Source: Patescibacteria group bacterium (GTDB taxonomy: Bacteria; Patescibacteriota; Dojkabacteria; JAKAPS01). From it: 64,000 bases of DNA. Positions within the stretch are counted from its first letter, which is position 1. Each line of letters starts with the position of its first letter. Below are positions 2 to 60,841 of the stretch, piece after piece. The notes beneath the pieces are model-generated. The model saw nothing but the letters and a program-made list of their open reading frames with translations, was not told the DNA's origin and ran no database searches. The DNA is taken from the NCBI GenBank assembly GCA_025450075.1, contig JANWIC010000007.1:39289-103288 (forward strand). The letters run 5' to 3'. A program made the translations under genes and the position numbers.

Positions 2-649
2 GAAAGAAAATTACATACTTTTTTCTCCCATTATCCCCAGCATCATTTCAAAAAAGGTGAGACGATTATCGCATCAAGTGATAAAATTACTCATGTATAT
101 CTTCTTGAAGAAGGTCTTGTCCAGCAACGTATCATTACCCAGGAAGGAGAAGAAGTATCCGTCCATCTCTTTAAACCGTTATCATATTTTCCTATGATGG
201 TTGTTATGAGTGAAGAAGAAAATGAATTTGATTTTGTAGCATTACAAAATCTTCTTTTATACAAAGCTCCAACGGAAGAAGTCTTAGCATTTTTGAATAA
301 TAATCATGATGTTTTATTTGATCTTGCTAAAAGATTTGCACAGGGAATTAATGGTTTAACAAGAAAGATTGTCACATTAAGCTATACCGATTCTCATGCG
401 AAAGTCGCTTCCTTCATCTATTATTTTGCAAGCAGGCTTGGCATTCTTGAAGACGGATATATCCGGTTTCCGATACATGTCACACATGCTGATATCGCTT
501 CGTGGATAGGAATTTCACGAGAAACTGTTAGCAGGCATTTTGTTATTTTAGAGCGAAAGGGATTCATTTCCTATGAAGATGAATTTATTCTTGTAAAAGA
601 TTTATCCAAGCTTGAGAAAGAAATTCATAAGCTTAAACGTTCTAAATAA
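2..649 (+). CDS. Crp/Fnr-family transcriptional regulator, 5'-partial (cNMP-binding domain runs off the window start; C-terminal HTH)
   Basis: The frame is open from nt 2. Upstream translation FKKGETIIASSDKITHVYLLEEGLVQQRIITQEGEEVSVHLF looks like a cNMP-binding beta-roll. The C-terminal HADIASWIGISRETVSRHFVILERKGFI looks like a Crp-type HTH. Confidence 0.7.
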   Translation, partial: ERKLHTFFSHYPQHHFKKGETIIASSDKITHVYLLEEGLVQQRIITQEGEEVSVHLFKPLSYFPMMVVMSEEENEFDFVALQNLLLYKAPTEEVLAFLNNNHDVLFDLAKRFAQGINGLTRKIVTLSYTDSHAKVASFIYYFASRLGILEDGYIRFPIHVTHADIASWIGISRETVSRHFVILERKGFISYEDEFILVKDLSKLEKEIHKLKRSK

Positions 650-1001
650 ATTCAAATTTTCCTGTTATTGTCTCGTTTGCTGGAATTATTCGTTTTCTGG
701 TTTTATTATCTCTTGGCATTCCAGTTGGAAGCAAATAGCTTTGCCATTTCCTATTCCCAACAGATAGTTCAAGATGAGGAAGATCAACAAGTTGAGGTTC
801 ATCATCAACATCATATATCCTGTATTTTCCATTCACAAGTATATGATCAACTTTATGCGAATTATGTGAAGCAATGAGTAATTCACCAATTTCTGCAGCC
901 CAAATCCAAGCATACGTTTTTGTTTTGTCTAAACTAAGAATTTTCATTTGTCCGTTTGACTCAATTAGTTGATAAATGCCTTGTTGAACGAGTTTAATCA
1001 T
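642..1001 (-). CDS. hypothetical protein (119 aa)
   Basis: Only an open frame; no recognisable motif; overlaps the regulator stop by 8 nt. Confidence 0.3.
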   Translation of the reverse strand: MIKLVQQGIYQLIESNGQMKILSLDKTKTYAWIWAAEIGELLIASHNSHKVDHILVNGKYRIYDVDDEPQLVDLPHLELSVGNRKWQSYLLPTGMPRDNKTRKRIIPANETITGKFEFI

Positions 1002-1050
1002 AATGAATACTCAAATATATACATGCAGTGTAAATGAAGAAAGGTTACAC

Positions 1051-1072
1051 AACAGTGATGCTTATCACTGTT
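1051..1072. promoter_or_regulatory. 22-bp perfect palindrome aacaGTGATgcttATCACtgtt (FNR/CRP-type TGAT-N4-ATCA core)
   Basis: The 9-bp arms 1051-1059 and 1064-1072 are exact reverse complements. It sits ~145 bp upstream of the cytochrome b-like ORF and next to a Crp/Fnr-family gene. Confidence 0.5.
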
Positions 1073-1214
1073 CATTTTACCAAATAATAATACAACTTTC
1101 GTAAATCGCACTTCTTCAAAAAGTCTGATGAGATTTTGTTGGTTTACCGACTATACCTTATTTCTGATTTATGTGAGTGACAACTATCACTGATGGATAG
1201 CTAGCATTCTATTA

Positions 1215-2657
1215 TTGTTAAGCTATACTTTTTTCAATTTTATGAATGAGCAAGAAAAACCTGAATCTTTTCTCATTATTTTAAGTAAAACTATGATAGA
1301 AAAAGTTCCCTCTTATGGGAACAAATTTTTTTATTCCTTAGGTTTTTTGTCAATGATCTCTTTTGTGATATTGATCATCACTGGATGTATCATGGCATTT
1401 GAAGGATCTACATGGTGGCTCACATCGACACTTGGGATATATACGAGAAGTGTGCACATGTGGGCAACGCAGGCATTTGTTATTTTTATGCTTTTGCATT
1501 TACTTATTGTTTTTCTAACATCAGGCTTTAAAAAACCCAGACAATTAACGTGGGTATTGGGAGGATTAATGTTTTTCTTTGTATTACTTGAAGCAGAGTT
1601 TGGATATGTATTACGAGGGGATTTCTCTGCGCAATGGAGAAGTTTACAGGGTGCTGATTTATATAATGGAAGCGGAATAGGTCAGTTTATTAATAATCTG
1701 AATAATATGCAGATTATTGGCATTCATGCTGTCCTCATTCCATTGATTATTATTAGCCTGTTATTCTTCCATTATCTTTTAGTCAAATCAAGAGGTATAG
1801 CTGCACCTTACATAAAAGATGTGCAATATACTGTCGTAAAGGCGGATCATACAATCCTTTTTATCCGCGGTGGTGTTCTTGCAGGAGTTATATTACTGCT
1901 TGCAATATTTTTTAAATCTCCATTTATCGCAGCAACCACCATTCAAGATGTTGCGACACAAGATCCTACTCTTCTAGCAAAAACACTCATTTCCGAGATG
2001 GATCAAAGTTCTGATACTGCTATATATCTGGATAATATAGATCCGTATACTTTTAACACGAAACAGGTATTTATTGAAGATCCATATATGCAATATATCA
2101 AGTTATATAATTCACCGAATATGCTATCAGCATTTGATAGTCAGGATTCTCGTGTGAAACTACTGGAACTGCAGGAAGCAAAGGACTACTTTGCTACGAA
2201 TACTGATTATACATCTCTTCCATATTCAGCGAATCCGGTAGTTCCAGTGGTTACCACACTGGTTCGAATGGCACAAACTGGGCTTTATGAAGCGAGCTTA
2301 AGACAATCTCTTGAAAATGGTTCAAATGGGACATATGTAACACGTTTCTTGGCAGATACTGGGGTATTGCAGGATAAGGCAACAAACCTTTACCTTACTA
2401 CAGACCAGTATGGCATGGTGAGAGATGAGTCAGGAGGAACTTTGCCTCCAGGAGCTTGGTGGTTAACTCCATTAGGTTTTCTGGATCACACGCTCCTTTC
2501 TACTGATCCTAATCAGGATAGAGATGGAGCAATCATTATTGGAACATTCATTCTTCTTTTATTGGCGTTTCCATATATTCCTTTCTTTAATAGACTTCCT
2601 GAACTATTTAGGATTGACCGCCTGATTTGGAAAGAGAAAAATGCGAAGTCTTCATGA
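1215..2657 (+). CDS. cytochrome b6-like membrane protein fused to a ~270-aa extracytoplasmic domain plus a C-terminal TM
   Basis: Two His pairs sit in TM helices (HMWATQAFVIFMLLH with 14 spacing; HAVLIPLIIISLLFFH with 15 spacing, as in b6). RQLTWVLGGLMFFFVLLEAEFGYVLRGDFSAQW matches the cyt b RELNW..G..L......AF.GY.LPW motif. The true start may be an internal Met. Confidence 0.55.
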   Translation: MLSYTFFNFMNEQEKPESFLIILSKTMIEKVPSYGNKFFYSLGFLSMISFVILIITGCIMAFEGSTWWLTSTLGIYTRSVHMWATQAFVIFMLLHLLIVFLTSGFKKPRQLTWVLGGLMFFFVLLEAEFGYVLRGDFSAQWRSLQGADLYNGSGIGQFINNLNNMQIIGIHAVLIPLIIISLLFFHYLLVKSRGIAAPYIKDVQYTVVKADHTILFIRGGVLAGVILLLAIFFKSPFIAATTIQDVATQDPTLLAKTLISEMDQSSDTAIYLDNIDPYTFNTKQVFIEDPYMQYIKLYNSPNMLSAFDSQDSRVKLLELQEAKDYFATNTDYTSLPYSANPVVPVVTTLVRMAQTGLYEASLRQSLENGSNGTYVTRFLADTGVLQDKATNLYLTTDQYGMVRDESGGTLPPGAWWLTPLGFLDHTLLSTDPNQDRDGAIIIGTFILLLLAFPYIPFFNRLPELFRIDRLIWKEKNAKSS

Positions 2658-2680
2658 TGAGTATCTGATATAATGGAAGT

Positions 2681-3553
2681 ATGAGTAATACGAGACTTCT
2701 TTCTGTCCATACTTCTGACGACTTGTATCTTAATGGGATACTCTCAGAACCTGATCATGGAAGTAGGACTATCATAATCCATACTCACGGCATGCAGGGA
2801 GATCTCTTCTCTCATATGCAGCTTTATGTGAGTAAATATCCAGAATATGGAGTTGCATTCTTATCAGGAGAGAATAGAGGTGCAAATATAATAAGGCGTT
2901 TTGATACAAGTACTGATGGGAAGATAATTGGCGGTGCATATGAGATTTTTGAAGAATGTGTATATGATATTGCTTCTTGGGTAGATGAGGCAGAAGAATT
3001 AGGATATGCAAATATCTGGATATCTTCACACAGTCTTTCTCCTGCTAAAATAGCATATTATCTCTATACAACAAAAGATCCAAGAGTAAAGGGAGTTATA
3101 TTCCTCAGTCCATCTGATAATGTGGGACTTGTAAAAGACCCGATTGGTGCAGCTGACCATGCTATCTGCTTTCCAGAAGCATTGCAACTTATTCAGCAAG
3201 GGAAACCACAGCAACTTCTTACACATCTTTTATGGGGAGATAAGATGCTTTCTGCTAGAACTTATTTAAACCTTTTTAGCGATGAATCTGCAGCAAATGT
3301 CTTCCACTATTATGATCCTTCCCGAAGTTGGGAAGTTGTAGAAAGTATCCGTGTTCCTGTCATAGCTTTCAGTGGATCAGAAGATGATGGGATTTTACCC
3401 GTCATTGATCCACAAAAGGGGTTAGAAATGCTAAAAAATCATCTCTTAAAATCTCCTCATGTTGCAACACATGTATTTGAAAATGCCACACATTCATTTG
3501 CCGGATTTGAAGAAGAAATCATCAATCTTTGTGTTTCCTTTATTAATTCCTAA
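2681..3553 (+). CDS. alpha/beta-hydrolase fold protein
   Basis: Nucleophile-elbow-like ISSHSLSP, with later Asp/His candidates (SGSEDDG, ATHSFAG). It lies 24 nt after the cyt b-like gene. Confidence 0.5.
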   Translation: MSNTRLLSVHTSDDLYLNGILSEPDHGSRTIIIHTHGMQGDLFSHMQLYVSKYPEYGVAFLSGENRGANIIRRFDTSTDGKIIGGAYEIFEECVYDIASWVDEAEELGYANIWISSHSLSPAKIAYYLYTTKDPRVKGVIFLSPSDNVGLVKDPIGAADHAICFPEALQLIQQGKPQQLLTHLLWGDKMLSARTYLNLFSDESAANVFHYYDPSRSWEVVESIRVPVIAFSGSEDDGILPVIDPQKGLEMLKNHLLKSPHVATHVFENATHSFAGFEEEIINLCVSFINS

Positions 3554-3715
3554 TTTGGCATATTTTGCAGATGAAGAATATTCCAAAAAGGAGTTTTCTG
3601 ATATTATTCTGGTATTCGAGGTAGATTTGTAAAATCAAAAGAAGTGATAGGGATAATTTCAGCAAAAAATATTAGCAGAAGATATACGAATTAAAGTTAA
3701 TGGAAGTTAGAGGAA

Positions 3716-4438
3716 TCAATGGGATACGGGGTTTTCTGCATCTTGCGTTGATTCAGGCTTTCTAATGAAATGTGCTAGATTATATTTAAAGTACATTCTA
3801 CCACATATACTCATGATTTCAGAAACTGGAATTTCTCCTAAACCTTCAATCGTTAATAACTGTCTACAAATTTCCCGTTTTTTTAGTCTAAGCTTTTTTC
3901 CAAAGATTGGGCCAGATAATGCGTATAAAATATCTGCTCTCGGTGTCCGTTCAAATAGAAGTGGATATTTAATTTCGCCAGATTTTTTGGCACTTGGCAA
4001 TTCTGCAGCTTCTTTGATTGTTTGCATTATCTCTCGTAATGAATCTTCACCTAACCGATGAAACATTGTTCTTCTACTTTCCCCTTTGGTATATGGTACC
4101 ACAGGAATTGCCCCAGCCTCATATAGAATGTCACAATACGCATTTTGTAATTCGTACACTTGGGGTGAAAAAAAACCTCTTCGTGTATGATCAATAATTC
4201 CTAATACAAAGATTCGAGGCTCTCCTCTTCCTTCCTCAAGGACATGCCATCCTTCCCATACAACAAATCCTAGTAATTCATGGTGCTTATCAGCAAGACT
4301 TATAAGCTTATCACCGATTTCATTTATACATGCAAATCCTTCACTTGTAAATGCAAACACTTCTTTTCCATTTTTATGTGGACTATGAGGTGGTAGCCGA
4401 TCCGAGTTAGGGGTTGTTAAATCTTCCTGTGCGCTCAT
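3716..4438 (-). CDS. hypothetical protein (240 aa)
   Basis: Long ORF with coding-like composition; divergent from tyrS; no family recognised. Confidence 0.45.
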   Translation of the reverse strand: MSAQEDLTTPNSDRLPPHSPHKNGKEVFAFTSEGFACINEIGDKLISLADKHHELLGFVVWEGWHVLEEGRGEPRIFVLGIIDHTRRGFFSPQVYELQNAYCDILYEAGAIPVVPYTKGESRRTMFHRLGEDSLREIMQTIKEAAELPSAKKSGEIKYPLLFERTPRADILYALSGPIFGKKLRLKKREICRQLLTIEGLGEIPVSEIMSICGRMYFKYNLAHFIRKPESTQDAENPVSH

Positions 4439-4627
4439 ATCGCTTGGGTTATGGAGGAAGTATACATCGAGTATTTCAAGAGCGCAAATTATGCGACTTC
4501 ATTATTAATATTAAGATATCTAACAAGACACAAAAAAAGGAATATCGGTTTGGTATAAAAGAATAACTGAACAAATGATAGTAAAATAAAATGGTTATTA
4601 TAACAAAAAGTTTCATGAAGATTCAGA

Positions 4628-4656
4628 TTGAAGAATACTCTTAATTCCTGTACAAT
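4628..4656 (+). promoter_or_regulatory. sigma70-like promoter (TTGAAG -17- TACAAT) for tyrS
   Basis: -35 at 4628-4633, 17-nt spacer, -10 at 4651-4656, ~24 nt before the ATG. Confidence 0.4.
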
Positions 4657-4679
4657 AAGCCTCGTATTATATATATATT

Positions 4680-5798
4680 ATGGACACCACCTCATTGGAA
4701 AAACATGTTGAAGAGATTATCGGATTAGATGAGCTCAAAACATATCTGGCTGCCCATAAAACACTCCAACACTATATTGGCTTTGAAATATCAGGACTTG
4801 TCCACCTTGGTACAGGATTAATGACAGGAATAGTAGTTCGAGAACTTCAGAAGCTTGGAGTCAATACCTCATACTTCCTTGCAGATTGGCATACATGGAT
4901 TAATAACAAGCTAGGTGGAGATATGGATTTCATAAATAAAGTGTCACATGAATACTTCGGTCCTGCATTAAAAATTTCTGCAAAAATTGCAGGTGCAAAT
5001 GAATCAAAAATTGAACTGAAGTACGGAAGTGAACTTTATCATAATAACGATGATTACTGGAAAAGTATCATTGATATAAGCAAGAATTTAACATTATCGC
5101 GGGTTCTCAAATCAACTATGATTATGGGAAGAAAGGAAAGTGATTCAATGCAATTTAGCTTTCTCATTTATCCCCCTATGCAGGTAGCAGATATTTACGA
5201 AATGCAAGTAAATATAGCTCATGCAGGTATGGACCAAAGAAAAGTCCATGTTATAGCTCGAGAAGTTGCAGAGAAACTGGAGATCTCACCTCTAAAAGAT
5301 GATGGAGGGAAGAATATAAAGCCGGTTGCTGTGCATCATCGCCTCCTATTAGGACTTCAAAAACCATCAACTTGGCCGATTCCTGAAGGAGTAGAGAAAG
5401 ATTTTATCCGCACTGAAATGAAGATGAGCAAATCAATACCTGGTTCAGCTATATTTATTCATGATACTGAAGAAGAAATTAGAAGCAAAATCAAGAAAGC
5501 ATTTTGTCCTGAAAAAGAAACAGAAGTTAATCCTGTCCTCAATTGGGCCAAAAATATCATCTTCCCCATTGTTGGTGAATTGAGAGTAAATCGTGAAGAA
5601 AAGTATGGTGAAAGCTTTACGGCGAAATCATACGAAGAGCTGGAGGAGAGATATGCATCAGGAGAACTTTTTTCACTAGATTTGAAAAATGCTGTTGCAG
5701 ATATACTTGTGGATATGCTTACTCCTGCAAGAGAATACTTTTCCCAAGACAACCTTCCGGAACTTATTCAACAAATTAGAGATAGTCAGACAAGATAA
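4680..5798 (+). CDS. tyrS: tyrosyl-tRNA synthetase, archaeal/eukaryal-type (class Ic)
   Basis: GFEISGLVHLGTG (HIGH-region variant, cf. archaeal GFEPSGKIHLGH). YPPMQVADI...GMDQRKVHVIAREV, KMSKS, EIRSKIKKAFCP, SYEELEERY and LDLKNAVAD align along the whole length with archaeal TyrRS. It is not the bacterial TyrS/TyrZ type. Confidence 0.8.
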   Translation: MDTTSLEKHVEEIIGLDELKTYLAAHKTLQHYIGFEISGLVHLGTGLMTGIVVRELQKLGVNTSYFLADWHTWINNKLGGDMDFINKVSHEYFGPALKISAKIAGANESKIELKYGSELYHNNDDYWKSIIDISKNLTLSRVLKSTMIMGRKESDSMQFSFLIYPPMQVADIYEMQVNIAHAGMDQRKVHVIAREVAEKLEISPLKDDGGKNIKPVAVHHRLLLGLQKPSTWPIPEGVEKDFIRTEMKMSKSIPGSAIFIHDTEEEIRSKIKKAFCPEKETEVNPVLNWAKNIIFPIVGELRVNREEKYGESFTAKSYEELEERYASGELFSLDLKNAVADILVDMLTPAREYFSQDNLPELIQQIRDSQTR

Positions 5799-5812
5799 GT
5801 GCCTTACACTAA

Positions 5813-6892
5813 TTGAGGTCAGCCATAAAGTATGATAGAATCTTGATACTTTTTTGTATTAATGTGGAACATGACCGATTATCTTTTGCTTATTCCGAAA
5901 CATTTCCTGAAAGTTTGCTGCCTCTTTTTGAAACTAATGAATGTGAACTTGCAGAAGAACTGCTTTGTGAACTTCATGCATGGGGCGTTTATACTAGAAC
6001 TAAACTTAATAAAAGATATCTAAAATCAGGCATTATCAGTCCTAATAGGGACATAGCTAGGCAAGCAATTGAAAGAGGAAATGAAATATTTTCAGTATTA
6101 AATAAAACTCCTCTTTTAGTAGATACTAATCCAGAACAAGAACTTGCCATTCGGGTAACCGCCTTTGAAAAGATTCTTTGGCTGTTAGTTCCTGATGAGA
6201 TAAGAAAGATTCTGGAAAAAACAAGTGAAAGAATTGCAAAGGTAATACCGATGGGATTTGGAATTGCTTTGATTGGTGGAACGGGGTTTGGAGCGGTATA
6301 TGAAAGGATGCTGATGGGGCTGAATATAAAGAATGGAGATGTTGATATTAAGCATTTCGAAGATGATATTCTCCCGCCTCGTTTACAAATGATGATAAAT
6401 AATATTATTCAAGATGAATTAAGAAGTAATTCTCTTGGTATGCGCTTATGTTCACACTTTAATGGAAATAATAGGGGAGAGAATAATCTTACACATGAAG
6501 TAGATCCTATTAATCAATTGGAATATGATGTCTTTTTTAATTTGTCTTTTCCACAAGATATTAATCAAAGAAATAGAGAAGCAATTTTTAAAAGGCTTAG
6601 TTATTTTGCAAGAACCGATAGGGAACGTTGGATTAGGCTAATAGAAACGATAATGATTAGAATAACAAAAAATCCTATTGAATCAAAATATATTTCTCCA
6701 TGGTTAGCTATTCCTCTTCAACATGACCCAGTTGTCCATATTTCAAGGTTACGTATTTATCAACTTAATTTTGATATTTCAGAACAAGAGCTATTACGTG
6801 TCGCGCACATTGCAAAACTTGGGAAGAAACTTTATCAACTCCTCATACTTCGAATGCTACTTGCGACTGGAGTCCAGGAAGAAATTGCTTAA
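5813..6892 (+). CDS. hypothetical protein (359 aa; start uncertain)
   Basis: Long ORF; no recognisable motif. Confidence 0.4.
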   Translation: MRSAIKYDRILILFCINVEHDRLSFAYSETFPESLLPLFETNECELAEELLCELHAWGVYTRTKLNKRYLKSGIISPNRDIARQAIERGNEIFSVLNKTPLLVDTNPEQELAIRVTAFEKILWLLVPDEIRKILEKTSERIAKVIPMGFGIALIGGTGFGAVYERMLMGLNIKNGDVDIKHFEDDILPPRLQMMINNIIQDELRSNSLGMRLCSHFNGNNRGENNLTHEVDPINQLEYDVFFNLSFPQDINQRNREAIFKRLSYFARTDRERWIRLIETIMIRITKNPIESKYISPWLAIPLQHDPVVHISRLRIYQLNFDISEQELLRVAHIAKLGKKLYQLLILRMLLATGVQEEIA

Positions 6893-7242
6893 AGGCTGCT
6901 TTGATCTTGGATATATTGCATAATTTGCTTTGGTGTCATGTTGTAGTTCAGATGATTCATGATCCAGATTGATGCGACAATGACAACTACTACTGCTCCG
7001 AATGTAGATATAAAGAAGACAACATTCCACCGGGGAGCTGGCTCTTGTCCTAAATGGAGAAAGAATACAAGTTGCACAAATAATTGGATAAGTGCAATTA
7101 TTAAAATAATTGGTAGAAGAATTTCATGAGGGATTTGTTCATGATATGAATTAACATGAATCAAGACAAGGATATATGCGAGAAATGTTAAAATCAAAGA
7201 GAGTATAAAACCTGCAATGTATGTTTTAAGTGTTTTTGTCAT
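6889..7242 (-). CDS. cyoD: quinol oxidase subunit IV (CyoD/QoxD-like)
   Basis: ~117-aa, 3-TM protein. Its ATG overlaps the cyoC stop (ATGA). It is last in the oxidase operon. Confidence 0.6.
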   Translation of the reverse strand: MTKTLKTYIAGFILSLILTFLAYILVLIHVNSYHEQIPHEILLPIILIIALIQLFVQLVFFLHLGQEPAPRWNVVFFISTFGAVVVVIVASIWIMNHLNYNMTPKQIMQYIQDQSSL

Positions 7243-7808
7243 AGCGCGACTCCCATAAGATAGACAATTGTAAAGATAAAAATCCAAACAATATCAAGAA
7301 AATGCCAGAATAAACTCATCAAGGTAATTTTTCGTATTCCTCCTTGTGTCAATCCCTTTTTCAAGATGAAAATGATTAAAATAAGCATCCATAATAGTCC
7401 TGCTGTAATATGCAGCCCATGTGTTCCGACTAAGGCAAAATATGATGACAAGAAAGCGCTTTTTTGATATGTATGTCCTTCTGAAAATAAATGAGAAAAT
7501 TCATACAATTCCATTCCTAAAAACCCAGCTCCAAGAAGAAAAGTTGTACATAACATCGCTATTACTCCTTTTAATTTCTTCTCATGAGCAAGAAGCAATG
7601 CTACTCCGCAGGTAAAACTACTTGTCAAAAGGAAAAGTGTTTCTACAAGGACAAATGGCATATTAAAAATTTGCGAACCTCCAACTCCTCCAAAAGTATT
7701 ATTCCGTAATACAATAAATGCAGCAAAAAGTCCTGCAAACATTAACAAGTCTGTCATTAAGTATATCCAGAAACCTAAAAATGTTTTTTCGTTTTTTTCT
7801 TCATGCAT
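7239..7808 (-). CDS. cyoC: heme-copper quinol oxidase subunit III
   Basis: 189-aa polytopic protein directly downstream of subunit I, with a subunit-III-like hydrophobic profile. Confidence 0.65.
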   Translation of the reverse strand: MHEEKNEKTFLGFWIYLMTDLLMFAGLFAAFIVLRNNTFGGVGGSQIFNMPFVLVETLFLLTSSFTCGVALLLAHEKKLKGVIAMLCTTFLLGAGFLGMELYEFSHLFSEGHTYQKSAFLSSYFALVGTHGLHITAGLLWMLILIIFILKKGLTQGGIRKITLMSLFWHFLDIVWIFIFTIVYLMGVAL

Positions 7809-9789
7809 ATATGTGGTCCTTTCTTTCCTGTTCTAATTTTGCAATTTCTTGAGCAGTTAATATATATTCAGTTTCTTCATCAAAAGCCCTGATGATGAGG
7901 CATACCATCATTCCCACAAATCCTATACCTGCGATCAGAAACATATGCCATACCATTGCAAATCCAAATAATAGAGCAAATCCTGCAAGATAGATCCCAA
8001 ACGGTGTATTTTTTGGTAATTCAAAATCTTTGTATTCCACATTTGCAGGCTGCGGATTTTCTTTCATTTCTTTTTTCATCTCCCAGAAAGCATCTCTGCC
8101 ATGAACTTCAGGAATTACTGCATAGTTATAAAAGGGAGGAGGGGAAGATGTTGCCCATTCAAGGTTTCTGGCATCCCATGGGTCACCTGACAAGTCCATA
8201 TTTTGTTTTCTATTTTTTATACTAATGATGATTTGTAGGATTTGGGTAGTTACTCCTGCAAGTATTACCATAAATCCAAGAACCGATATGATAAACAATG
8301 GTTGCCAGGCTGGATTTGTATAATGGTCAAGCCGTCTCGTTGCACCCATATATCCGAGAATATATAACGGGATAAAGGCAAGGAAAAAACCGGTAAGCCA
8401 GAACCAGAAAGCAGTCTTCCCTAATTTTTCATTCAGTTTAAATCCCATAAACTTTGGGAACCAGTATGTAATCCCTGCGAACAATCCGAATAATGCACCT
8501 CCAACAATCATGGTATGGAAATGTGCGACAAGAAATAGTGAGTTATGTAATTGATAATCTGCAGTAGGAGATGCTAGCAAGACTCCTGCAATACCTCCGA
8601 ATGTAAAAGTTGCTACAAACCCTAAGAACCAGTAGAGCGAAGATGACAACACAATCCTTCCCCGATACATCGTTGATAACCAATTAAAGATCTGGACTCC
8701 GGTAGGGATAGCGATAATCATAGTTGAAATACCAAAGATTGCATTCACATCTGCTCCTGCTCCCATGGTAAAGAAATGATGAAGCCATACCATTAATGAA
8801 AGAATAGTTACAAAAATTGCTGCAAGAACTTGTGAGGTATATCCGGCAAGTTTTTTGTGACTAAATGTTGATACGACTTCAGAAAATATACCAAAAGAGG
8901 GGAGTACTAAAATATATACTTCCGGATGTCCCCACATCCAAATGAGGTTAATATACATCATCGGATTTCCGCCATTTGTGGTAGTAAAAAAATGCATTCC
9001 TAAATATCGATCAAGAGTTAACATGGCAATGGTTATTGCAAGAATTGGAAAAACAGTTACAACAAGAATACTGCTGCATAGAGTTGTCCATACAAAAAGT
9101 GGCATTCGCATCAAGGTCATGCCAGGTGCGCGCATCTTTAATATGGTTACAAGAAAGTTTAATCCAGCAAGCAAGCTTCCAAGTCCTGATACTTGTAAAC
9201 TCCATATCCAGTAATCAACTCCTACTCCAGGGCTAAATTGCAATTCTGATAATGGCGCTTGAGCAAGCCAACCGGTTGCAGCAAAATCTCCTCCAAATAC
9301 AAAGAACATATTAATGAGGATGGCACCTGCGACATAGAGCCAGAAACCAAGCGTGTTTAGAAAAGGAAATGCCAAATCACGTGCACCGATTTGTAACGGA
9401 ACAACAAGATTCATTAGTCCAACTAATAATCCCATGGTTGCAAAAAATACCATAATATCCCCATGAGCAGTAAATATTTGCTGGAAATGATCTGCACTTA
9501 AGTAACCTGTTGACGATCCCACGGAAAGTGCCTGTTGCATCCAAATCATGATTGCATCTAAAGCTCCTCGAAAAAGCATAAGAAGCGCAACAATGATATA
9601 CATAATTCCGATTCTCTTTGGGTCAGTTGAAGTAAGCCATTCATTCCATAGCCATTTCCACCGCTTTGTATACGTTAATACTGCAGCAGCTACAGCTCCC
9701 ATCAGCATGAGGGTAAGTGTTCCCCCGATGGTATACCATACATGTGGTAGAGAGTTCCAGGTTAATTTACCGAATAGTAAGTTCCACAT
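7801..9789 (-). CDS. cyoB: heme-copper oxidase subunit I
   Basis: WGHPEVYILVLP motif, His ligands (HHFFTMG, HFHT...) and 662 aa with 12+ TM helices. Confidence 0.9.
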   Translation of the reverse strand: MWNLLFGKLTWNSLPHVWYTIGGTLTLMLMGAVAAAVLTYTKRWKWLWNEWLTSTDPKRIGIMYIIVALLMLFRGALDAIMIWMQQALSVGSSTGYLSADHFQQIFTAHGDIMVFFATMGLLVGLMNLVVPLQIGARDLAFPFLNTLGFWLYVAGAILINMFFVFGGDFAATGWLAQAPLSELQFSPGVGVDYWIWSLQVSGLGSLLAGLNFLVTILKMRAPGMTLMRMPLFVWTTLCSSILVVTVFPILAITIAMLTLDRYLGMHFFTTTNGGNPMMYINLIWMWGHPEVYILVLPSFGIFSEVVSTFSHKKLAGYTSQVLAAIFVTILSLMVWLHHFFTMGAGADVNAIFGISTMIIAIPTGVQIFNWLSTMYRGRIVLSSSLYWFLGFVATFTFGGIAGVLLASPTADYQLHNSLFLVAHFHTMIVGGALFGLFAGITYWFPKFMGFKLNEKLGKTAFWFWLTGFFLAFIPLYILGYMGATRRLDHYTNPAWQPLFIISVLGFMVILAGVTTQILQIIISIKNRKQNMDLSGDPWDARNLEWATSSPPPFYNYAVIPEVHGRDAFWEMKKEMKENPQPANVEYKDFELPKNTPFGIYLAGFALLFGFAMVWHMFLIAGIGFVGMMVCLIIRAFDEETEYILTAQEIAKLEQERKDHIYA

Positions 9790-9790
9790 A

Positions 9791-10675
9791 TTACATTTGG
9801 CTCATATATATTGTGTTCCCGTTTGACATATATTTTGCAACAATCGAATTAAACAGGTTCTTGTTTGGTTGGGAGAATTCTTTTCCTTGGTTATTTGTAC
9901 TTGGCTCTACAAGTTTGTTATACCCATTCGTATCTAACATGTTAGCTGATTGATTAATTGATTGTACCCATTGAGAATATTCCTTATTCGATGTCGCTTT
10001 CACTGTAAAATTCATTCCTGAAAATCCTTCACCACTCATTTCAGCTGCACCACCAGGATAGTCTCCGGGTTTATTTGCCATGAGATGTATCTGAGTAACC
10101 ATTCCTGTCATTGCATAAATTTGACCTCCAAGGCTTGGGATCCAGAATGAATTCATCGGTGCATTATCTGCCGTAAGTTGGAAATCTATTGGAGTATTTG
10201 CAGGTATTTCTAAATAGTTAACTGTTGCTATATTTTCCTGGGGATATATGAAAAGCCATTTCCAACGAAGAGCAACAACCTCAATCTCAATAGGTTTTGA
10301 TTGAGCAATAATTGGGTTATATGGGTCATATGCATGTGCAGATTGCCAACCGATGATTGCCCACACAAAGATAATACATGCAGGAATACTCCACCATGCT
10401 GTTGTAAGCTTTTTACCTGCACTCCATTCAGGAGTATAGGCTTGGTTATTTCCTTCCTGATATCGAAATACAATAAATAATGTGAATAATATTAACGGGA
10501 TACCGATACAAAAAGCTAAAACAAGAGCCATGACAAGAAGTGTGCTTTGACCTTGTGCGACATATCCTTGAGGGTTAAGTAACTGGAGATTCCCGTTACG
10601 GGCAAGTATAACAAAAAGAGTTGCAATTGAAAGTGCATCAATAAGGAAGATAACGGTTTTTGCTTTATGTTTCAT
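9791..10675 (-). CDS. cyoA: quinol oxidase subunit II (CuA ligands lost)
   Basis: Subunit II fold with a cupredoxin C-terminal domain. The CuA site reads AEMSGEGFSGM (Cys->Ala/Ser, His->Phe), as in CyoA/QoxA quinol oxidases. Confidence 0.8.
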   Translation of the reverse strand: MKHKAKTVIFLIDALSIATLFVILARNGNLQLLNPQGYVAQGQSTLLVMALVLAFCIGIPLILFTLFIVFRYQEGNNQAYTPEWSAGKKLTTAWWSIPACIIFVWAIIGWQSAHAYDPYNPIIAQSKPIEIEVVALRWKWLFIYPQENIATVNYLEIPANTPIDFQLTADNAPMNSFWIPSLGGQIYAMTGMVTQIHLMANKPGDYPGGAAEMSGEGFSGMNFTVKATSNKEYSQWVQSINQSANMLDTNGYNKLVEPSTNNQGKEFSQPNKNLFNSIVAKYMSNGNTIYMSQM

Positions 10676-10857
10676 ATGGGCAGGATGTCTGTTTTACTCA
10701 TCTTTCTTTCACATTCAGCATATCCTTTTATCCTTTTCCCGTCAAGATCAATAGATAAAGACACAGGACCAAAGTCCCTCTGGCATTTCACTTCGGTTTT
10801 ACATGTTGAAGCGTGCTAATATAGAATGGTACTATTTACTGGATCAAGAATTCATCA

Positions 10858-11508
10858 ATGAATACAGATAAACAATATGATGCTATTTTAGTTCATGTAT
10901 ATTGGCTTTCAAACATAGATGGGGATGTGAAGTTAAGTACAAGAAGCAATCTCGTTGCAGCTTCTGCGGCAAGCCTTTATCTTCAAGGCAAAGTAAAAAA
11001 TATCGTTATAACGGGTGGTAAGATTTGGGGAAAAGAATACCCGTCTGTTGCTCGATTAATGGCAAATGAATTAACAAATACATTCACTATACCTCAAGAG
11101 CATATCTTTATCAAAGACATAGCTCTTAATACAAGTCAGGAAATTGATGAATTTTTAAAGATTGCAGAAAAAATGAATTGGCAATCATTACTTGATCTGG
11201 CATCAAAGAAACACTTCTGGACTATATCTAAACTATATATGAATAAAGGAGTGAAAGATAAAGTGGAATTTGTAAATATGGAAGATGTATTACTGAAAGG
11301 GAATAATGATGAATTAATAAAAAGAGTCAAAAAATTAATGTATTCCAAGTATGAATTCAATTATATCTTGTATGAACTAGTAATTCGTCTTGTTCTTTTC
11401 ATCGACCCTCAATATACATTACTTGGTAAGATAGCGGGCAAAGAGAGAATCAAAAAGACATTTGCCGGATTATTGCCGTTTCTTCCTATGGATGAATATC
11501 AGTTATAG
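10858..11508 (+). CDS. DUF218 (YdcF/SanA-like) domain protein
   Basis: AILVHV...R...AA.LYLQGKVKNIVITGG...LNTSQEIDEF matches the DUF218 core. Confidence 0.55.
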   Translation: MNTDKQYDAILVHVYWLSNIDGDVKLSTRSNLVAASAASLYLQGKVKNIVITGGKIWGKEYPSVARLMANELTNTFTIPQEHIFIKDIALNTSQEIDEFLKIAEKMNWQSLLDLASKKHFWTISKLYMNKGVKDKVEFVNMEDVLLKGNNDELIKRVKKLMYSKYEFNYILYELVIRLVLFIDPQYTLLGKIAGKERIKKTFAGLLPFLPMDEYQL

Positions 11509-11649
11509 AAGGCCAAAAATATAGGTATTTTCAATTATAAAAAGGAAAAATGTGTATGCAATACAGCATGTAAAATAATTGAACATTAATACTCTAATAT
11601 ATTGATATAATTAGGAAGAATGATATAATCAAAGCATTCTCACTATACT

Positions 11650-12738
11650 ATGGAACAACAACCAACTAATATATCACCTTTAATTGCGGCAGAAGCACTA
11701 CTTCCCACAAATGAAGAGAGGCTTCCTTTAGGAGAATATAGTCGCTTTGTTCGTAATGAATTAGCTGAAAAAGTCGCTGAGATGGATGCTTCTAACCAAT
11801 ATGAACAAAATGAGATGTTAAAAGCCTTACAAGTGTATACAGAAAGTTTATTACAAAATATTTCGGAAGATGAAATTAGGCAATTATTGGCAAAAGAAAA
11901 CATTCGGAACAGAAGAATAGCTCTTCTTGATCTCTATCTTTTGCAGCAAGTTATTGATAGGTATGAATATCATCAAAGCAAGGTAAATGATGAAAAACCT
12001 GCTTCTAATTTAGAAAAAATATTAAAGCGTCTTGCAAATAGGGAAGGATTTGATCCGCAAAAAATGCCATGGTCTTTAACCGGAAAAGATTATCCAATAG
12101 AGGATCCCCGATTTATGTTTATTGATGAGAGTGTTAGACAAAGTGAATGGGTATTACTTGTCATGCAATATTTATTAGAAAATAGATTTTCATCAGCTGC
12201 TAATGATTTGGTAGTAATTGCCGGTGACATCCGTAGAGGCGTTTCGCAAGATATGGTAACACAACAGTTACAAAAAGTCCTCGAAACATTGGCACCTATT
12301 CAGGACTTAATGAAGTTATATCAGCTTATCCCAGTTCCAAATTTTGATAAATTCCTAACCCGATATTATCCTTCAGGTGCATTTGCAGTAGATATTTATG
12401 TCGTCGAAGCACTTACGGGAAATGCACAAACAGCTAAATCTGCAAGAGTAAAGATGATAAAGTTATTACAAGATCTTAGAGGAGAAATCGATCCTGATAT
12501 GATCAGAAACATGGAATATGCATTAGCAATTGGTATGCCAATTGCTTCAATGGAGGAAGCAAACAGGTATCCAGGTTCAATAGATTTACTTGCTGCTTGT
12601 GCAAAAAGGGTAAACCTCTTTCTTGCATCTCATCTAGCAGCGGCTAAACATCATACACATGGAGGCGATGAAGAATTAAAAACGAGACCCTCCTTTGATC
12701 CCAATAATAATGCATGGAATTCCATGCGCCCTCTATAG
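11650..12738 (+). CDS. hypothetical protein (362 aa)
   Basis: Long ORF; no family recognised. Confidence 0.45.
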   Translation: MEQQPTNISPLIAAEALLPTNEERLPLGEYSRFVRNELAEKVAEMDASNQYEQNEMLKALQVYTESLLQNISEDEIRQLLAKENIRNRRIALLDLYLLQQVIDRYEYHQSKVNDEKPASNLEKILKRLANREGFDPQKMPWSLTGKDYPIEDPRFMFIDESVRQSEWVLLVMQYLLENRFSSAANDLVVIAGDIRRGVSQDMVTQQLQKVLETLAPIQDLMKLYQLIPVPNFDKFLTRYYPSGAFAVDIYVVEALTGNAQTAKSARVKMIKLLQDLRGEIDPDMIRNMEYALAIGMPIASMEEANRYPGSIDLLAACAKRVNLFLASHLAAAKHHTHGGDEELKTRPSFDPNNNAWNSMRPL

Positions 12739-12947
12739 GAAAAACGAAGAATATTATAACGGATAATTTCTATTCTATGGATGTTATTAAATGAATAATC
12801 TACTCTAGCGTGCTATTATGCTTGATGTATGGTATAATACATCTAGTGCAGACCCTTTACCATTTTGTTTTTTCCAGGAATTACATATGTAGAGAGATTA
12901 TTTATATATTTTGTTCCCTGCATGAACAAAAAGTGAAAGGAGCCAAA

Positions 12948-13235
12948 ATGGCAACAAAATTATTTATCGGAAGTCTTCCGTATAGTGTTACTTCCAGTGA
13001 TCTGGAAAATCTTTTTTCCCAGGTTGGGAAAGTTATTTCATCAGCTGTTATTCAGGATAGAATGACAAATAGAAGCAAAGGTTTTGCTTTTGTTGAGATG
13101 GAATCTGACGCTGAAGCTCAGGAAGCTATCAGACGATTCAATGGATATGACCTACAGGGTCGTGAAATTATCGTTAATGTAGCGAAACCAAGAGAAGAAT
13201 CTGACAATAGAGGTTTTTATAACTCAAGAGGATAA
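12948..13235 (+). CDS. RRM-type RNA-binding protein (Rbp-like)
   Basis: RNP2 KLFIGSLPY and RNP1 KGFAFVEM; ends ...VNVAKPREE. A strong SD (AAAGGAG) sits 6 nt before the ATG at 12948. Confidence 0.85.
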   Translation: MATKLFIGSLPYSVTSSDLENLFSQVGKVISSAVIQDRMTNRSKGFAFVEMESDAEAQEAIRRFNGYDLQGREIIVNVAKPREESDNRGFYNSRG

Positions 13236-13256
13236 GAATAATACTTGGTCACATAT

Positions 13257-13303
13257 GATCTAGGTAGACTTAGTATTAAGGATGCCTAGATCTTTATTTT
13301 TTA
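13257..13303 (+). terminator. rho-independent terminator-like hairpin after the RRM gene
   Basis: GATCTAG...CTAGATC stem followed by a tttattttttatt run. Confidence 0.4.
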
Positions 13304-13317
13304 TTGGAGGAATAGAT

Positions 13318-13602
13318 ATGAGTAATGTATGTATGAGATGCGGAAAAGAAAGAATTGTCATTGAAGAATGGATAGAACTTGTTGAAACTGAAAGAAGGAC
13401 AAACCAAATCCGTCATATGAAAACGACCTGTCCTGATCCTGAATGCCAGAAAATGGTTGATGAGAGTCTTGCAAAAGAAAAGGTAAAAAATGAGGAAAGA
13501 AAAGCAGAAAAAATTGAGAATGATAGGGTATTAAAAGAAGAAAGACAGAAGAGAATAGAGCAGGCTTTATTGAAACCAATAAAAGTAAAAGGTAGGAAGT
13601 AA
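13318..13602 (+). CDS. small zinc-ribbon protein (CxxC...CPDPEC) with a Lys/Glu-rich tail
   Basis: A GGAGG sits 8 nt before the ATG at 13318; CMRCGK and CPDPEC motifs. Confidence 0.45.
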   Translation: MSNVCMRCGKERIVIEEWIELVETERRTNQIRHMKTTCPDPECQKMVDESLAKEKVKNEERKAEKIENDRVLKEERQKRIEQALLKPIKVKGRK

Positions 13603-13608
13603 AAGAAT

Positions 13609-14610
13609 TTAAATTGAGAATACGAATTCTTTAAACAATTTCTCTAATTTTTCAACATTTTCGTTATACTGGCTTGATACAACAATTATATTCGTATTAT
13701 ATGCTTTTAATTTATCAGCTTTTTTCTCAATTGTTTCTTTATCGAATAGATCTGATTTCGTAAGGACTATTAATTCAGGTTTGTTACACAAACCTGTGCT
13801 AAACGCTTCAAGTTCTTTCCTGATTGTCAGGTAATCTTTTTCAACATCTTCAGATTCAAGGCTTATAAAATGGGCTACAAGTTTTGAATAGAAAGTATGT
13901 TTACTAAATCCCTTTCCTAAACCTTTTCCTTCTGCAACTCCTTCTATAAGTCCAGGAAGATCCATGAGCTTAATATGTGGATCCATTACCCCAATTTGGG
14001 GTACAATGGTAGTAAACGGATAGGAAGCAGTCTTCACATGTGCATTTGTTAGAGCGTTTAACATACTTGATTTTCCTGCATTAGGAAGACCAATAAACAC
14101 AATATCTGCTGCTAATTGGAGTTGAATAAAAACCTTCAATCTCTTCGGAATTCCTCCTTTTGTATGTTTCATCAATGTACTGACTTGACCTTGCCTAAAA
14201 GCAAAGTTTCCAATGCCCCCCTCTCCTCCTTTTGCAAGAAGTTTCTTTTCACCGTCTTTTTCAATTCGTAATATCTGTTTTCCGTTTGTATCCGCAATAA
14301 CGGTTACTAATGGCACTTTTATAATAAGTGGTCTTCCTGATTTTCCTTGTTTATTGGATGGCATGCCAATTACTCCATCCTCAGCCTTGTATTCCTGCTT
14401 ATTGGTAAAATCAGATAAGTCATAGATATTTGATGATCCTTCCAAAATAATATCTCCACCACGTCCGCCATTTCCGCCGTCAGGCTTACCTTTTGTAGGG
14501 TAATATATTTTGTTATTCTTTCCTAAAGACCTTCCGTATTTGGCAAAACTGACAAGACCATCCCCACCTTTTCCGGGGATAAAATCAATTCGTAATGTAT
14601 CTACCAGCAT
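13609..14610 (-). CDS. obg: GTPase Obg
   Basis: Gly-rich Obg fold at the N-terminus (GKGGDG, GGNGGRGGDI, GGEGGIGN). G1 motif GLPNAGKSSMLNALT. The DLPGLIEGA region is also present. Confidence 0.9.
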   Translation of the reverse strand: MLVDTLRIDFIPGKGGDGLVSFAKYGRSLGKNNKIYYPTKGKPDGGNGGRGGDIILEGSSNIYDLSDFTNKQEYKAEDGVIGMPSNKQGKSGRPLIIKVPLVTVIADTNGKQILRIEKDGEKKLLAKGGEGGIGNFAFRQGQVSTLMKHTKGGIPKRLKVFIQLQLAADIVFIGLPNAGKSSMLNALTNAHVKTASYPFTTIVPQIGVMDPHIKLMDLPGLIEGVAEGKGLGKGFSKHTFYSKLVAHFISLESEDVEKDYLTIRKELEAFSTGLCNKPELIVLTKSDLFDKETIEKKADKLKAYNTNIIVVSSQYNENVEKLEKLFKEFVFSI

Positions 14611-14737
14611 ATTTAATCTTTAATGGATTGATTTTACCATAAATAAAGAAATATCCCTATTTATTTGTACTCCGTTAGATTCATATATTTTTCTTTCAAA
14701 ATATTATATAATTCCCTTCAATATTTAAAAATCATTT

Positions 14738-15973
14738 ATGGGCTATGAAAATGGAGTTACTCAATCATATTCACCAACAGGTTTACCACTTATCACTGAA
14801 GGATTTGCTCTAGAATTATTAAGTAGTGAAATTGATTTTGACCACTTTTATACGGTTGTTCAATCTATCCTTGACGAGAATCCATATCTTGCATTGGTTA
14901 TTCATAACATAGTTTCCTTATTAAGATCGGAAGTCCCGAATACAATTGAAGGGTTACATCTTCCTGAAAAATTAAACAAAGAAGATTTAATTGGAGAAGT
15001 TAAACTAACGGGAGTCTATCAGGTATTAGAGGTAAGAAATACAATTTTAGAACATACATCGTTAGTATTATTATTTATACTTCATGAGCAATCTTTATAT
15101 CATTTGCAAAATTCAATTAGTTATCGAGATCAAGGAAAAGGTAGATTAACATCAAGTGGATTACCTTTTTTATCTGCTATTACATATGAACAAGTTATCA
15201 ATTTTGTAAATAATAAAATTAAAGAAGGTAATGGTCAATTACTTGGGTATCAAAATGCGCATCCTCCTGAAGATCATTTATATCATTTAATCGATGGAAT
15301 AGCTGAGGTATATGGAGATGTACTCGCACCTGATATAAAAATAGTTTTATATTACATTATTGCTATTTTAGAAACTCAGCATAATATAGATGCAGAATTA
15401 CCCGATTATATGAAAAACGGATTACCTGTTTTACATGCTGAAGATGTCGATTTGTATCATAAAAGTAGAACAAGGAGACTCCTTCCAAATAATTATTTTT
15501 TCTTGAGGACTAATATAAAAAACGATTTAAATCGTTGGAATTTCTTCAAAATTACTAATCCTGATGTTACAATAAAGTATATCCTTACCTTATTGGGAGG
15601 AGTTTGTACTAAAAATGAAGCAAATAAGATTTTTGATAGATGTATGCATCATTTAGGAGATTTATTAACATTTTTGTATGGTAGGGATTTAATTAGAAAT
15701 AATCATTCAAATGGTACTCGTCCTCATTCTAATGCTTTATTTGGTCCGCCATATATTACAGATAAGGTACTAAATGAGGCAATGAGAAGATATCCGGGTA
15801 AATTATGGCCTGAGTTTATGAATGAAGTACAAGAACGATTATTGAGAGATAATCCATATTTAGTTGAGTTGATGTATGCAATTGTTGAAGATTATCAGGA
15901 TGAAGAATTAAAAAAACTTGTATTACAAATGATGATGGGTTTTATAGCATTAAATGAATATAAAGGAAGATAA
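14738..15973 (+). CDS. hypothetical protein (411 aa)
   Basis: Long ORF; no family recognised. Confidence 0.45.
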   Translation: MGYENGVTQSYSPTGLPLITEGFALELLSSEIDFDHFYTVVQSILDENPYLALVIHNIVSLLRSEVPNTIEGLHLPEKLNKEDLIGEVKLTGVYQVLEVRNTILEHTSLVLLFILHEQSLYHLQNSISYRDQGKGRLTSSGLPFLSAITYEQVINFVNNKIKEGNGQLLGYQNAHPPEDHLYHLIDGIAEVYGDVLAPDIKIVLYYIIAILETQHNIDAELPDYMKNGLPVLHAEDVDLYHKSRTRRLLPNNYFFLRTNIKNDLNRWNFFKITNPDVTIKYILTLLGGVCTKNEANKIFDRCMHHLGDLLTFLYGRDLIRNNHSNGTRPHSNALFGPPYITDKVLNEAMRRYPGKLWPEFMNEVQERLLRDNPYLVELMYAIVEDYQDEELKKLVLQMMMGFIALNEYKGR

Positions 15974-25620: not shown

Positions 25621-26045
25621 TGGTGGAGATGGGGGGAGTCGAACCCCCGTACAAGACAAAAGAACAGATATAGTACTACAAGCTTACTTAGCTTCGTTTT
25701 TTTACATTCAGATCCTCAAAGCTAAGAAAAAAGATCATGAAAGGATATAATTAAGTACATATCAAGTTGCTATATCAGACAGCATGACATATACCTGACT
25801 GTTTTTTTGCCCTACTATTCCCATCAGGCGAGGTTTAGTAAAACACCAGCGATCTAATTTAGATATATGCTGGAGTATAAGCTGGAGCTCTGAAGAAATT
25901 AACTACAGAAGCTACTGTTGCCTGTACTTTTTGACTGAATGTGTTTGCATTTATGTCATTGGTACGTTTTTTTACGAAGTTATTACCATAATCTTCGGCT
26001 TGCTATATAAGCCCTATTTACCCTGGCGAAACCAAATACATCCCC
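25621..26045 (-). ncRNA. ssrA: tmRNA (ssrA)
   Basis: 5' GGGGATGTATTTGGTTTCGCCAGGG (cf. conserved GGGG...GGAUUCGACGGG). 3' GGGGGTTCGACTCCCCC-CATCTCC-A-CCA. The acceptor has a G3:U70 (Ala identity) pair and an encoded CCA. A candidate tag ORF starts GCA AAC (A N...). Confidence 0.75.
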
Positions 26046-38305: not shown

Positions 38306-38782
38306 ATGGGTCAAGAACGTGAAAGTTCTGCCCCAGATGATGTCTTACCTCCTATAACCTCACCGGATGAAGTTATATTAAACTTATACCTTTACTTCGG
38401 GTTTGAAGATGTTTACCCATTCTCATATATAAAGTCACGAATTGCAAATTATCGACCATATTTTGATTCTTGGAAAATGGCAATCCTTGAGAAAGATTCC
38501 AATGCTTCCGAAATTGATATTGATTATACAATAGCCCTTAAATGTTGCTTAATGTTAAGTGATATCTTTAAGGTAGAAGTAATGAGATGTCCTGATTATG
38601 AAAGAACTAAGAACGAACTATGGGTAATAAGCGATCCAAAAGATACCTTGGGTTTAGGACAATTTCATCTACTTACCTTTAAATTTTGGGGACAATTAGG
38701 AATAGTCCATCTAATGCAAGATAATAGAAATGATCTCGATGATGAAGTGATTATAGTTTTAGACAGAGACTCATTGAACTAA
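38306..38782 (+). CDS. hypothetical protein (158 aa) inserted between fusA and tuf
   Basis: Its ATG overlaps the fusA stop (TAATATG). No recognisable family. Confidence 0.5.
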   Translation: MGQERESSAPDDVLPPITSPDEVILNLYLYFGFEDVYPFSYIKSRIANYRPYFDSWKMAILEKDSNASEIDIDYTIALKCCLMLSDIFKVEVMRCPDYERTKNELWVISDPKDTLGLGQFHLLTFKFWGQLGIVHLMQDNRNDLDDEVIIVLDRDSLN

Positions 38783-45720: not shown

Positions 45721-46004
45721 AACTGAGAAAAAACGATAAAATAAAAATAGTACGTGGAAAAGACAAAGGGAAAGAGTCAGTGATTGAACGGGTTTTGCCT
45801 AAAAGCGGCAAAATATATGCAAAAGATATCAATATCGTTAAAAAACATGCAAAGGGGAGAGGTATTATCGACCTTATCAAGCCGGTTCAGGCTTCAAATG
45901 TTATGGTAATCTGTCCGAATTGCAATAAACCAACAAGAGTAGGATATAAAGTTGAAAAAGAGAAAAAAACCAGATTTTGTAAACAATGTCAAAAAGACTT
46001 CTAA
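45717..46004 (+). CDS. rplX: 50S ribosomal protein L24 (KOW) with a C-terminal C4 zinc-ribbon-like motif
   Basis: [14 protein letters not shown] (KOW), then CPNC...CKQC at the C-terminus where other L24 proteins have no Cys. Confidence 0.88.
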
Positions 46005-60728: not shown

Positions 60729-60801
60729 TCCAAGGGGTAGGAGTTGAACCTACTTAAACTGGTTTTACAGACCAGCGCATCAACCGTTCTGCCACCCTTG
60801 G
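60729..60801 (-). tRNA. tRNA-Tyr (anticodon GUA), class I (short variable loop) with a C1:G72 pair and A73
   Basis: Reverse complement is CCAAGGG-TG-GCA-GAACGGTTGA-TGC-G-CTGGT-CTGTAAA-ACCAG-TTTAA-GTAGG-TTCAACT-CCTAC-CCCTTGG-A. All stems pair. U33 is present and the anticodon is GTA. Confidence 0.75.
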
Positions 60802-60812
60802 ATGACGTTGAT

Positions 60813-60841
60813 ATTTTAATGAATAATCGCTATATTGTCAA
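60813..60841 (-). promoter_or_regulatory. promoter (TTGACA -17- TAAAAT) for tRNA-Tyr
   Basis: Reverse-complement -35 at 60836-60841, 17-nt spacer, -10 at 60813-60818. The tRNA 5' end is 11 nt downstream. Confidence 0.45.

Follow-up and report, generated by a model that had tools for sequence, protein, structure and literature searches.

Our analysis of a 64-kb stretch of contig JANWIC010000007.1 (assembly GCA_025450075.1; hereafter the window) from a Candidate Phyla Radiation bacterium (CPR, Patescibacteria) revealed a gene for an archaeal-type tyrosyl-tRNA synthetase (TyrRS; tyrS, 4680-5798, plus strand, 372 amino acids) and a gene for a class I tRNA-Tyr(GUA) of 73 nt with the pair C1:G72 and the discriminator A73 (60729-60801, minus strand). 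It is quite probable that the two form the tyrosine-charging system of this bacterium and that this system works by archaeal identity rules. An initial annotation, made from the sequence of the window, had called such a pair unusual, a description that is apt for bacteria at large though not for the CPR: in this group the combination was described in 2017 (Mukai et al., 2017; PMC5370408), and the window is a further instance of this already known phenomenon.

Type of the synthetase and its tRNA-reading residues

The tyrS product passes the NCBIfam model of archaeal-type TyrRS (NF006330; PRK08560) with 386.2 bits at a cut-off of 220 and fails the model of the bacterial enzyme (TIGR00234) with 71.1 bits against a cut-off of 113.8, the latter being matched only over residues 13-199; this comparison of models had been proposed in the initial annotation. 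In a search of all Protein Data Bank (PDB) chains (E<1e-5), all 48 matches were archaeal or eukaryal TyrRS, with no bacterial TyrRS among them; the best was the enzyme of Pyrococcus horikoshii (2CYC, 390 bits), residues 6-364 of the window protein being aligned to residues 11-369. Pfam recognized PF00579 alone, at residues 27-347 of 372, therefore no space is left for a C-terminal S4-like domain, and the architecture consists of a Rossmann-fold catalytic domain and an anticodon-binding domain. The open reading frame (ORF) contains all the motifs on which the initial annotation had relied (IGFEISGLVHLGT, YPPMQVADI, MDQRKVH, KMSKS, EIRSKIKKAFCP, SYEELE, LDLKNAVAD), and both of its claims about the enzyme, full-length alignment with archaeal TyrRS and dissimilarity to bacterial TyrS/TyrZ, were borne out. 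No second class Ic synthetase or paralogue was found in the window.

Functional residues were mapped onto the TyrRS of Methanocaldococcus jannaschii, whose sequence was confirmed against chain A of PDB 1J1U and agrees with it fully. The class I signatures are present as HLGT (residues 42-45) and KMSKS (248-252). The tyrosine pocket is kept, with Tyr32, Glu36, His71, Tyr164, Gln168, Asp171 and Gln186 (window numbering) corresponding to Y32, E36, H70, Y151, Q155, D158 and Q173 of M. jannaschii, all invariant in 32 aligned sequences. Asp286 of M. jannaschii, which we take to be the reader of G34, is conserved as Asp334, and the residues stacking on G34, Phe261 and His283, are represented by Tyr309 and Phe331. 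Arg132, Arg174 and Lys175 of M. jannaschii read C1-G72, as shown by a structural comparison across the three kingdoms (PMC1934993); Arg174 and Lys175 are conserved as Arg187 and Lys188, and Arg132, which makes a water-mediated contact with C1, is conservatively replaced by Lys144.

By homology to the solved complexes, the protein would be a class Ic synthetase, presumably a homodimer, that activates tyrosine with ATP via HLGT and KMSKS, the tyrosine hydroxyl being bound by Tyr32 and Asp171; tyrosyl-adenylate would be formed first and tyrosine then passed to tRNA-Tyr. The tRNA would be selected by its C1:G72 pair, read by Arg187 and Lys188 together with Lys144 in place of the M. jannaschii Arg132, by the discriminator A73, and by G34 of the GUA anticodon, read by Asp334. 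The variable arm, reduced in the tRNA to five loop nucleotides, would remain unused; since the enzyme is without the bacterial S4-like domain that grips this arm, its tRNA would not need a long one.

A promoter-like site (TTGAAG-17-TACAAT, 9/12; 4628-4656, plus strand) was found by a consensus scan 24 nt before the ATG start codon of tyrS, with no clear Shine-Dalgarno sequence between the two; such sites are no commoner upstream of tyrS than in shuffled sequence, which makes it a weak candidate. A T-box or other leader RNA 5' of tyrS was ruled out, as there was no Rfam match.

The tRNA-Tyr gene

With the Rfam tRNA model (RF00005), Infernal detected a minus-strand tRNA whose bounds are exactly 60729-60801 (60.6 bits, E 1.2e-10), and ARAGORN called it tRNA-Tyr(GTA), so that a covariance-model fold other than tRNA-Tyr, named in the initial annotation as a possible refutation, was not what emerged. 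The Infernal alignment and direct reading agree with its description of the tRNA as class I, with a 5-nt variable loop, C1:G72 and A73, and it is also the sole tRNA-Tyr of the window; the other RNA genes detected by ARAGORN and Infernal/Rfam are tRNA-Pro(GGG) and a transfer-messenger RNA (tmRNA). The sequence reads CCAAGGG-UG-GCAGAACGGUUGAUGC-G-CUGGU-CUGUAAA-ACCAG-UUUAA-GUAGG-UUCAACU-CCUAC-CCCUUGG-A. The variable loop is UUUAA, the long variable arm (V-arm) is absent, the anticodon loop is CUGUAAA with A37, and CCA is not encoded; G9 is present in the body, whose D stem combines three Watson-Crick pairs with G13·A22. The GUA anticodon, C1:G72 and A73 agree with the archaeal/eukaryal tRNA-Tyr identity set (PMC9976931, Table 1).

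The gene lies 55 kb from tyrS. A promoter-like site (TTGACA-17-TAAAAT, 11/12; 60813-60841, minus strand), found by pattern matching in a consensus scan, stops 12 nt short of the 5' end of the tRNA; this suggests that it may be the gene's own promoter and that the tRNA is probably transcribed separately.

Host, relatives and possible origins of the pair

The host of the window is a CPR bacterium. Apart from the tmRNA, a bacterial mark (Rfam match of 125 bits), the window carries bacterial rpoB and rpoC and an operon for ribosomal proteins of bacterial type. The closest named relatives of RpoB are from a Patescibacteria group bacterium and Ca. Dojkabacteria (about 57% identity), followed by Nomurabacteria and Moranbacteria. 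In the ribosomal operon (order L18-S5-L15-SecY) the L30 gene is absent between S5, which ends at 49383, and L15, which starts at 49385, consistent with a CPR host; loss of L30 is typical of the CPR. The G+C content of tyrS is 0.372 (0.290 at third codon positions, GC3), as compared with gene means of 0.365±0.025 and 0.259±0.036, and G+C is uniform along the window. This native composition and uniformity therefore disfavour contamination, chimerism and recent transfer, and a recent transfer of tyrS was rejected.

The closest TyrRS sequences are from the unclassified 'bacterium YF1.bin83' (73% identity), 'Saccharibacteria' (67%, on a 945-kb chromosome), Patescibacteria PATE-7 (62%) and Doudnabacteria (61%), the top CPR matches spanning 56-73%; DPANN archaea follow at about 50-52% (Iainarchaeum, Woesearchaeota, Pacearchaeota, Nanoarchaeia). 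A TyrRS phylogeny, envisaged in the initial annotation, was reconstructed by neighbour-joining from 32 sequences, with no bacterial-type TyrS included (200 bootstraps). The window protein and L001 form a pair (bootstrap 99) within a purely CPR clade (bootstrap 100), whose metagenome-assembled genomes (MAGs) bear the labels Dojkabacteria, Saccharibacteria, Doudnabacteria, Roizmanbacteria and Patescibacteria. Outside this clade are a second CPR group (Microgenomates) and DPANN, the latter being the nearest non-CPR relatives; M. jannaschii and one Thermoplasmatales sequence are more distant. The TyrRS of Andersenbacteria, also CPR, sits elsewhere in the tree with MAGs labelled Alphaproteobacteria and Rickettsiaceae (L015, L019; bootstrap 93-100). 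Its separate placement is consistent with more than one transfer having taken place; as for L015 and L019, either the bins are mislabelled or archaeal-type TyrRS occurs outside the CPR. In nine related loci, the flanks contain no counterpart of any gene around tyrS (window positions 194-15973), therefore gene order is uninformative on vertical descent.

Several close CPR relatives of the enzyme (P0013, P0056, P0014, P0025, P0090) carry N-terminal fusions, namely PF01588 (tRNA_bind OB fold), PF03483 (B3/4 domain) or PF04073 (aminoacyl-tRNA editing domain of YbaK type). The accessible part of Mukai et al. (PMC5370408) describes fusion of the PheRS-beta B2 (OB-fold) domain to TyrRS, and no mention of a YbaK-type fusion was found in it. 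In the closest relative, tyrS and a queuosine synthesis gene (queA; L140, 5307-6329) are 1.5 kb apart. As queuosine is a modification of G34 in bacterial tRNA-Tyr, the bacterial pathway may act on the tRNA of archaeal identity.

The CPR-only clade next to DPANN and the native GC and GC3 values suggest an old, lineage-level replacement by lateral transfer, and we infer that the enzyme came long ago from DPANN-like archaea, replacing the bacterial TyrS within CPR lineages. The initial annotation had offered either ancient replacement or joint acquisition of the enzyme and its identity set. The former fits the data; as for a joint acquisition of the tRNA, its bacterial-looking A37, G9 and D stem and its distance from tyrS count against it.

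Several points weigh against reading the two genes as the host's tyrosine-charging pair. The search covered the 64-kb window, and a bacterial TyrS or a G1:C72 class II tRNA-Tyr could lie elsewhere in the genome; the TyrRS tree has no bacterial-type or eukaryal outgroups and shows low support at deep nodes; the substitutions R132K, F261Y and H283F alter positions of tRNA contact in M. jannaschii, and though conservative they are found in just a part of the aligned relatives; and ARAGORN pairs U(-1) with A73, giving an acceptor stem of 8 bp in which the C:G pair moves to the second position. Were this last register real, the mature tRNA would have A74 as the discriminator and U:A as its top pair. 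We regard it as very improbable, in spite of the U at -1 being able to pair with A73: a pairable -1/73 combination is to be expected by chance in about one gene in four or more, Infernal aligns the tRNA with a canonical 7-bp stem and with U8 in place, and the enzyme retains the Arg and Lys residues that read C1:G72. The canonical register is favoured also because a related tRNA (L013) has A at -1, which makes the extra pair impossible, and another (L051) encodes CCA directly after A73. An artefact of assembly or binning, in which archaeal DNA was fused to a bacterial contig or sorted into its bin, is even harder to credit. CPR and DPANN do co-occur and their bins can cross-contaminate, according to Mukai et al. 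(PMC5370408); but tyrS, the tRNA, the tmRNA, rpoB/rpoC and the ribosomal operon stand on one continuous stretch of uniform G+C content, and long contigs of bacteria, among them the 945-kb chromosome, also carry the nearest TyrRS relatives. The pair could also be an accessory second system, possibly used in stress or resistance, beside a canonical bacterial TyrS/tRNA-Tyr pair outside the window. This we consider unlikely. CPR genomes are small and usually have single copies of aminoacyl-tRNA synthetases; tyrS and the tRNA gene do not form a cassette but are dispersed among housekeeping genes, their composition is native, a strong promoter-like site stands at the tRNA, and within the window there is no second class Ic enzyme, nor was a bacterial-type TyrS or a G1:C72 class II tRNA-Tyr found there. 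There is room for such a pair, as the contig measures 108,882 bp or more and the window covers 64 kb of it, and Mukai et al. (PMC5370408) report coexisting bacterial and archaeal tryptophan pairs (TrpRS-A in Ca. Beckwithbacteria); for tyrosine, however, their paper has no such report of a bacterial pair beside the archaeal one. On balance, we infer that the archaeal-type pair is probably active and is the main or only tyrosine pair of the cell.

The origin of the tRNA body is a separate question. None of the ten archaeal loci examined contained a tRNA-Tyr. Among the CPR relatives, the class I C1:G72 tRNA-Tyr of Andersenbacteria (L017) hardly differs from that of the window, whose variable loop and T arm it shares; in Microgenomates (L013) a C1:G72 tRNA-Tyr that still has the long arm is located directly upstream of tyrS, and L051 likewise combines C1:G72 with a V-arm. 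A metagenome scan with the anticodon-to-T-arm part common to the window and L017 tRNAs gave no matches. A second scan used a looser pattern built on features of the window tRNA (A37 in CUGUAAA, G9, D stem with G13·A22) and yielded at least 118 tRNA-Tyr; G1:C72 was present in 116 of the 118 listed, 107 of these with A73, and most of the 118 are long-arm tRNAs of 82-86 nt. The matches listed were almost all of the canonical bacterial class II type, with neither further class I examples nor archaeal tRNAs among them. The D region of the window tRNA has an identity of 0.60 to that of M. jannaschii and a median identity of 0.70 to the bacterial set, a weak and biased contrast, since the set was chosen by a pattern derived from the window. 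From the second scan the D-arm motif appears bacterial in style. One tentative scenario, for which the chances seem to us somewhat short of even, is that the lineage's bacterial class II tRNA-Tyr was remodelled after the enzyme swap, the first pair being flipped and the long arm then deleted. Co-transfer of the enzyme and the tRNA from a DPANN-like archaeon, the tRNA being archaeal by descent rather than a remodelled bacterial one, appears less likely still. Class I structure, C1:G72 and A73 are as in archaeal tRNA-Tyr, the L013 layout would permit joint transfer, and CPR tRNA-Tyr genes are said to be of 'bacterial or archaeal origins' by Mukai et al. (PMC5370408). Against it stand A37 in CUGUAAA, G9 and the three-pair D stem with G13·A22, the weak evidence that a pattern made of these features retrieves mostly long-arm G1:C72 tRNAs, the different body of the M. 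jannaschii tRNA with A9 and a 4-bp D stem (PMC6337575), and the intermediate-looking L013 tRNA, C1:G72 with V-arm. If true, remodelling would be a natural conversion of class II to class I with intermediates (L013, L051) persisting in sister CPR lineages, and would record a stepwise natural rewriting of a tRNA identity set; the window may help in asking how tRNA-Tyr lost its long arm.

Some other features of the window deserve mention. Unmatched ORFs flank tyrS at 3716-4438 (minus strand) and 5813-6892 (plus strand), the latter beginning 15 nt past the tyrS stop; together with a 158-residue ORF between EF-G and EF-Tu (38306-38782, plus strand; scanned against NCBIfam only) and a 789-residue ORF just downstream of the tRNA-Tyr gene (58304-60673, minus strand), they make up four sizeable ORFs with no Pfam/NCBIfam match. 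A haem-copper quinol/cytochrome oxidase cluster adjoins tyrS (6889-10675, minus strand, and 1215-2657, plus strand), with subunit I (PF00115, 454 bits) standing beside ORFs similar to subunits II, III and IV, and a cytochrome b-like membrane protein is also present; respiratory oxidases are uncommon in CPR genomes. A gene for an RlmB-type 23S rRNA 2'-O-methyltransferase (TIGR00186, 166 bits; 45986-46774, plus strand) is inserted into the ribosomal operon between L24 and L5. For the tmRNA (25621-26045, minus strand) ARAGORN predicted a tag of 29 residues, ANTFSQKVQATVASVVNFFRAPAYTPAYI, unusually long and without the usual ...LAA end; the Rfam alignment is poor in the middle, and this tag call may be wrong.

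Comparison with known systems

The recognition of tRNA-Tyr by TyrRS is a textbook identity rule dividing Bacteria from Archaea and Eukarya, and this divide is what makes the pair from M. jannaschii orthogonal in E. coli, where it serves in genetic code expansion. Bacteria working on the archaeal rule indicate that the barrier is crossable, which bears on the question, already raised in 2017, of which identity set is ancestral. The window adds a clean contiguous example, with the enzyme, its partner tRNA and bacterial marker genes on one contig.

According to Mukai, Reynolds, Crnković and Söll (2017, Life 7:8; PMC5370408), archaea/eukarya-type TyrRS and C1-G72 tRNA-Tyr occur in Parcubacteria (OD1) and Microgenomates (OP11) as well as in Dojkabacteria (WS6) and Katanobacteria (WWE3), the tRNA being known both with and without the V-arm and the enzyme being predicted to derive from DPANN archaea. 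The window system resembles these in its TyrRS without S4-like domain, C1-G72 tRNA-Tyr with no V-arm, and DPANN-related enzyme, and its host is near Dojkabacteria by RpoB. Unlike the form highlighted there, the window TyrRS has no N-terminal OB-fold fusion, showing a plain single-domain architecture. Neither its genome nor its closest TyrRS relatives ('Saccharibacteria', 'bacterium YF1.bin83') are named in that paper, in the text of which Saccharibacteria/TM7 do not occur, and no later publications on archaeal-type TyrRS in Patescibacteria came up when the literature was searched for them. The nearest TyrRS relatives of the window lineage include Saccharibacteria-labelled MAGs; as MAG labels are uncertain, this is at most a modest extension of the 2017 report. 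Earlier work in synthetic biology, cited in the same text (PMC5370408), had established that an archaeal-type tyrosine pair is able to replace the endogenous pair of E. coli, and the window pair is a natural equivalent of that replacement.

Among characterized enzymes, the window TyrRS is aligned end to end with long-form archaeal TyrRS such as that of P. horikoshii (372 and 375 residues, respectively), with which it shares an insertion after MDQRK absent from the 306-residue M. jannaschii enzyme; unlike the P. horikoshii protein, it is encoded by a bacterium and clusters with CPR rather than Thermococcales. With the M. jannaschii pair (1J1U) it has in common the identity logic (C1:G72, A73, G34) and the residues Tyr32, Asp158, Gln173, Arg174, Lys175 and Asp286 (M. 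jannaschii numbering); it differs in overall sequence (about 35% identity), in R132K, F261Y and H283F, and in having KMSKS instead of KMSSS. The tRNA of M. jannaschii has G37, and the window tRNA departs from it in A37, G9 and the 3-bp D stem. Compared with bacterial TyrS/TyrZ, the enzyme would catalyze the same reaction on the same class Ic Rossmann-fold core (PF00579) but falls below the TIGR00234 cut-off and lacks the S4-like domain; similarly, the window tRNA is like bacterial tRNA-Tyr in its anticodon loop and D-arm, and unlike the bacterial class II form (G1:C72, long arm) in its inverted first pair and short variable loop.

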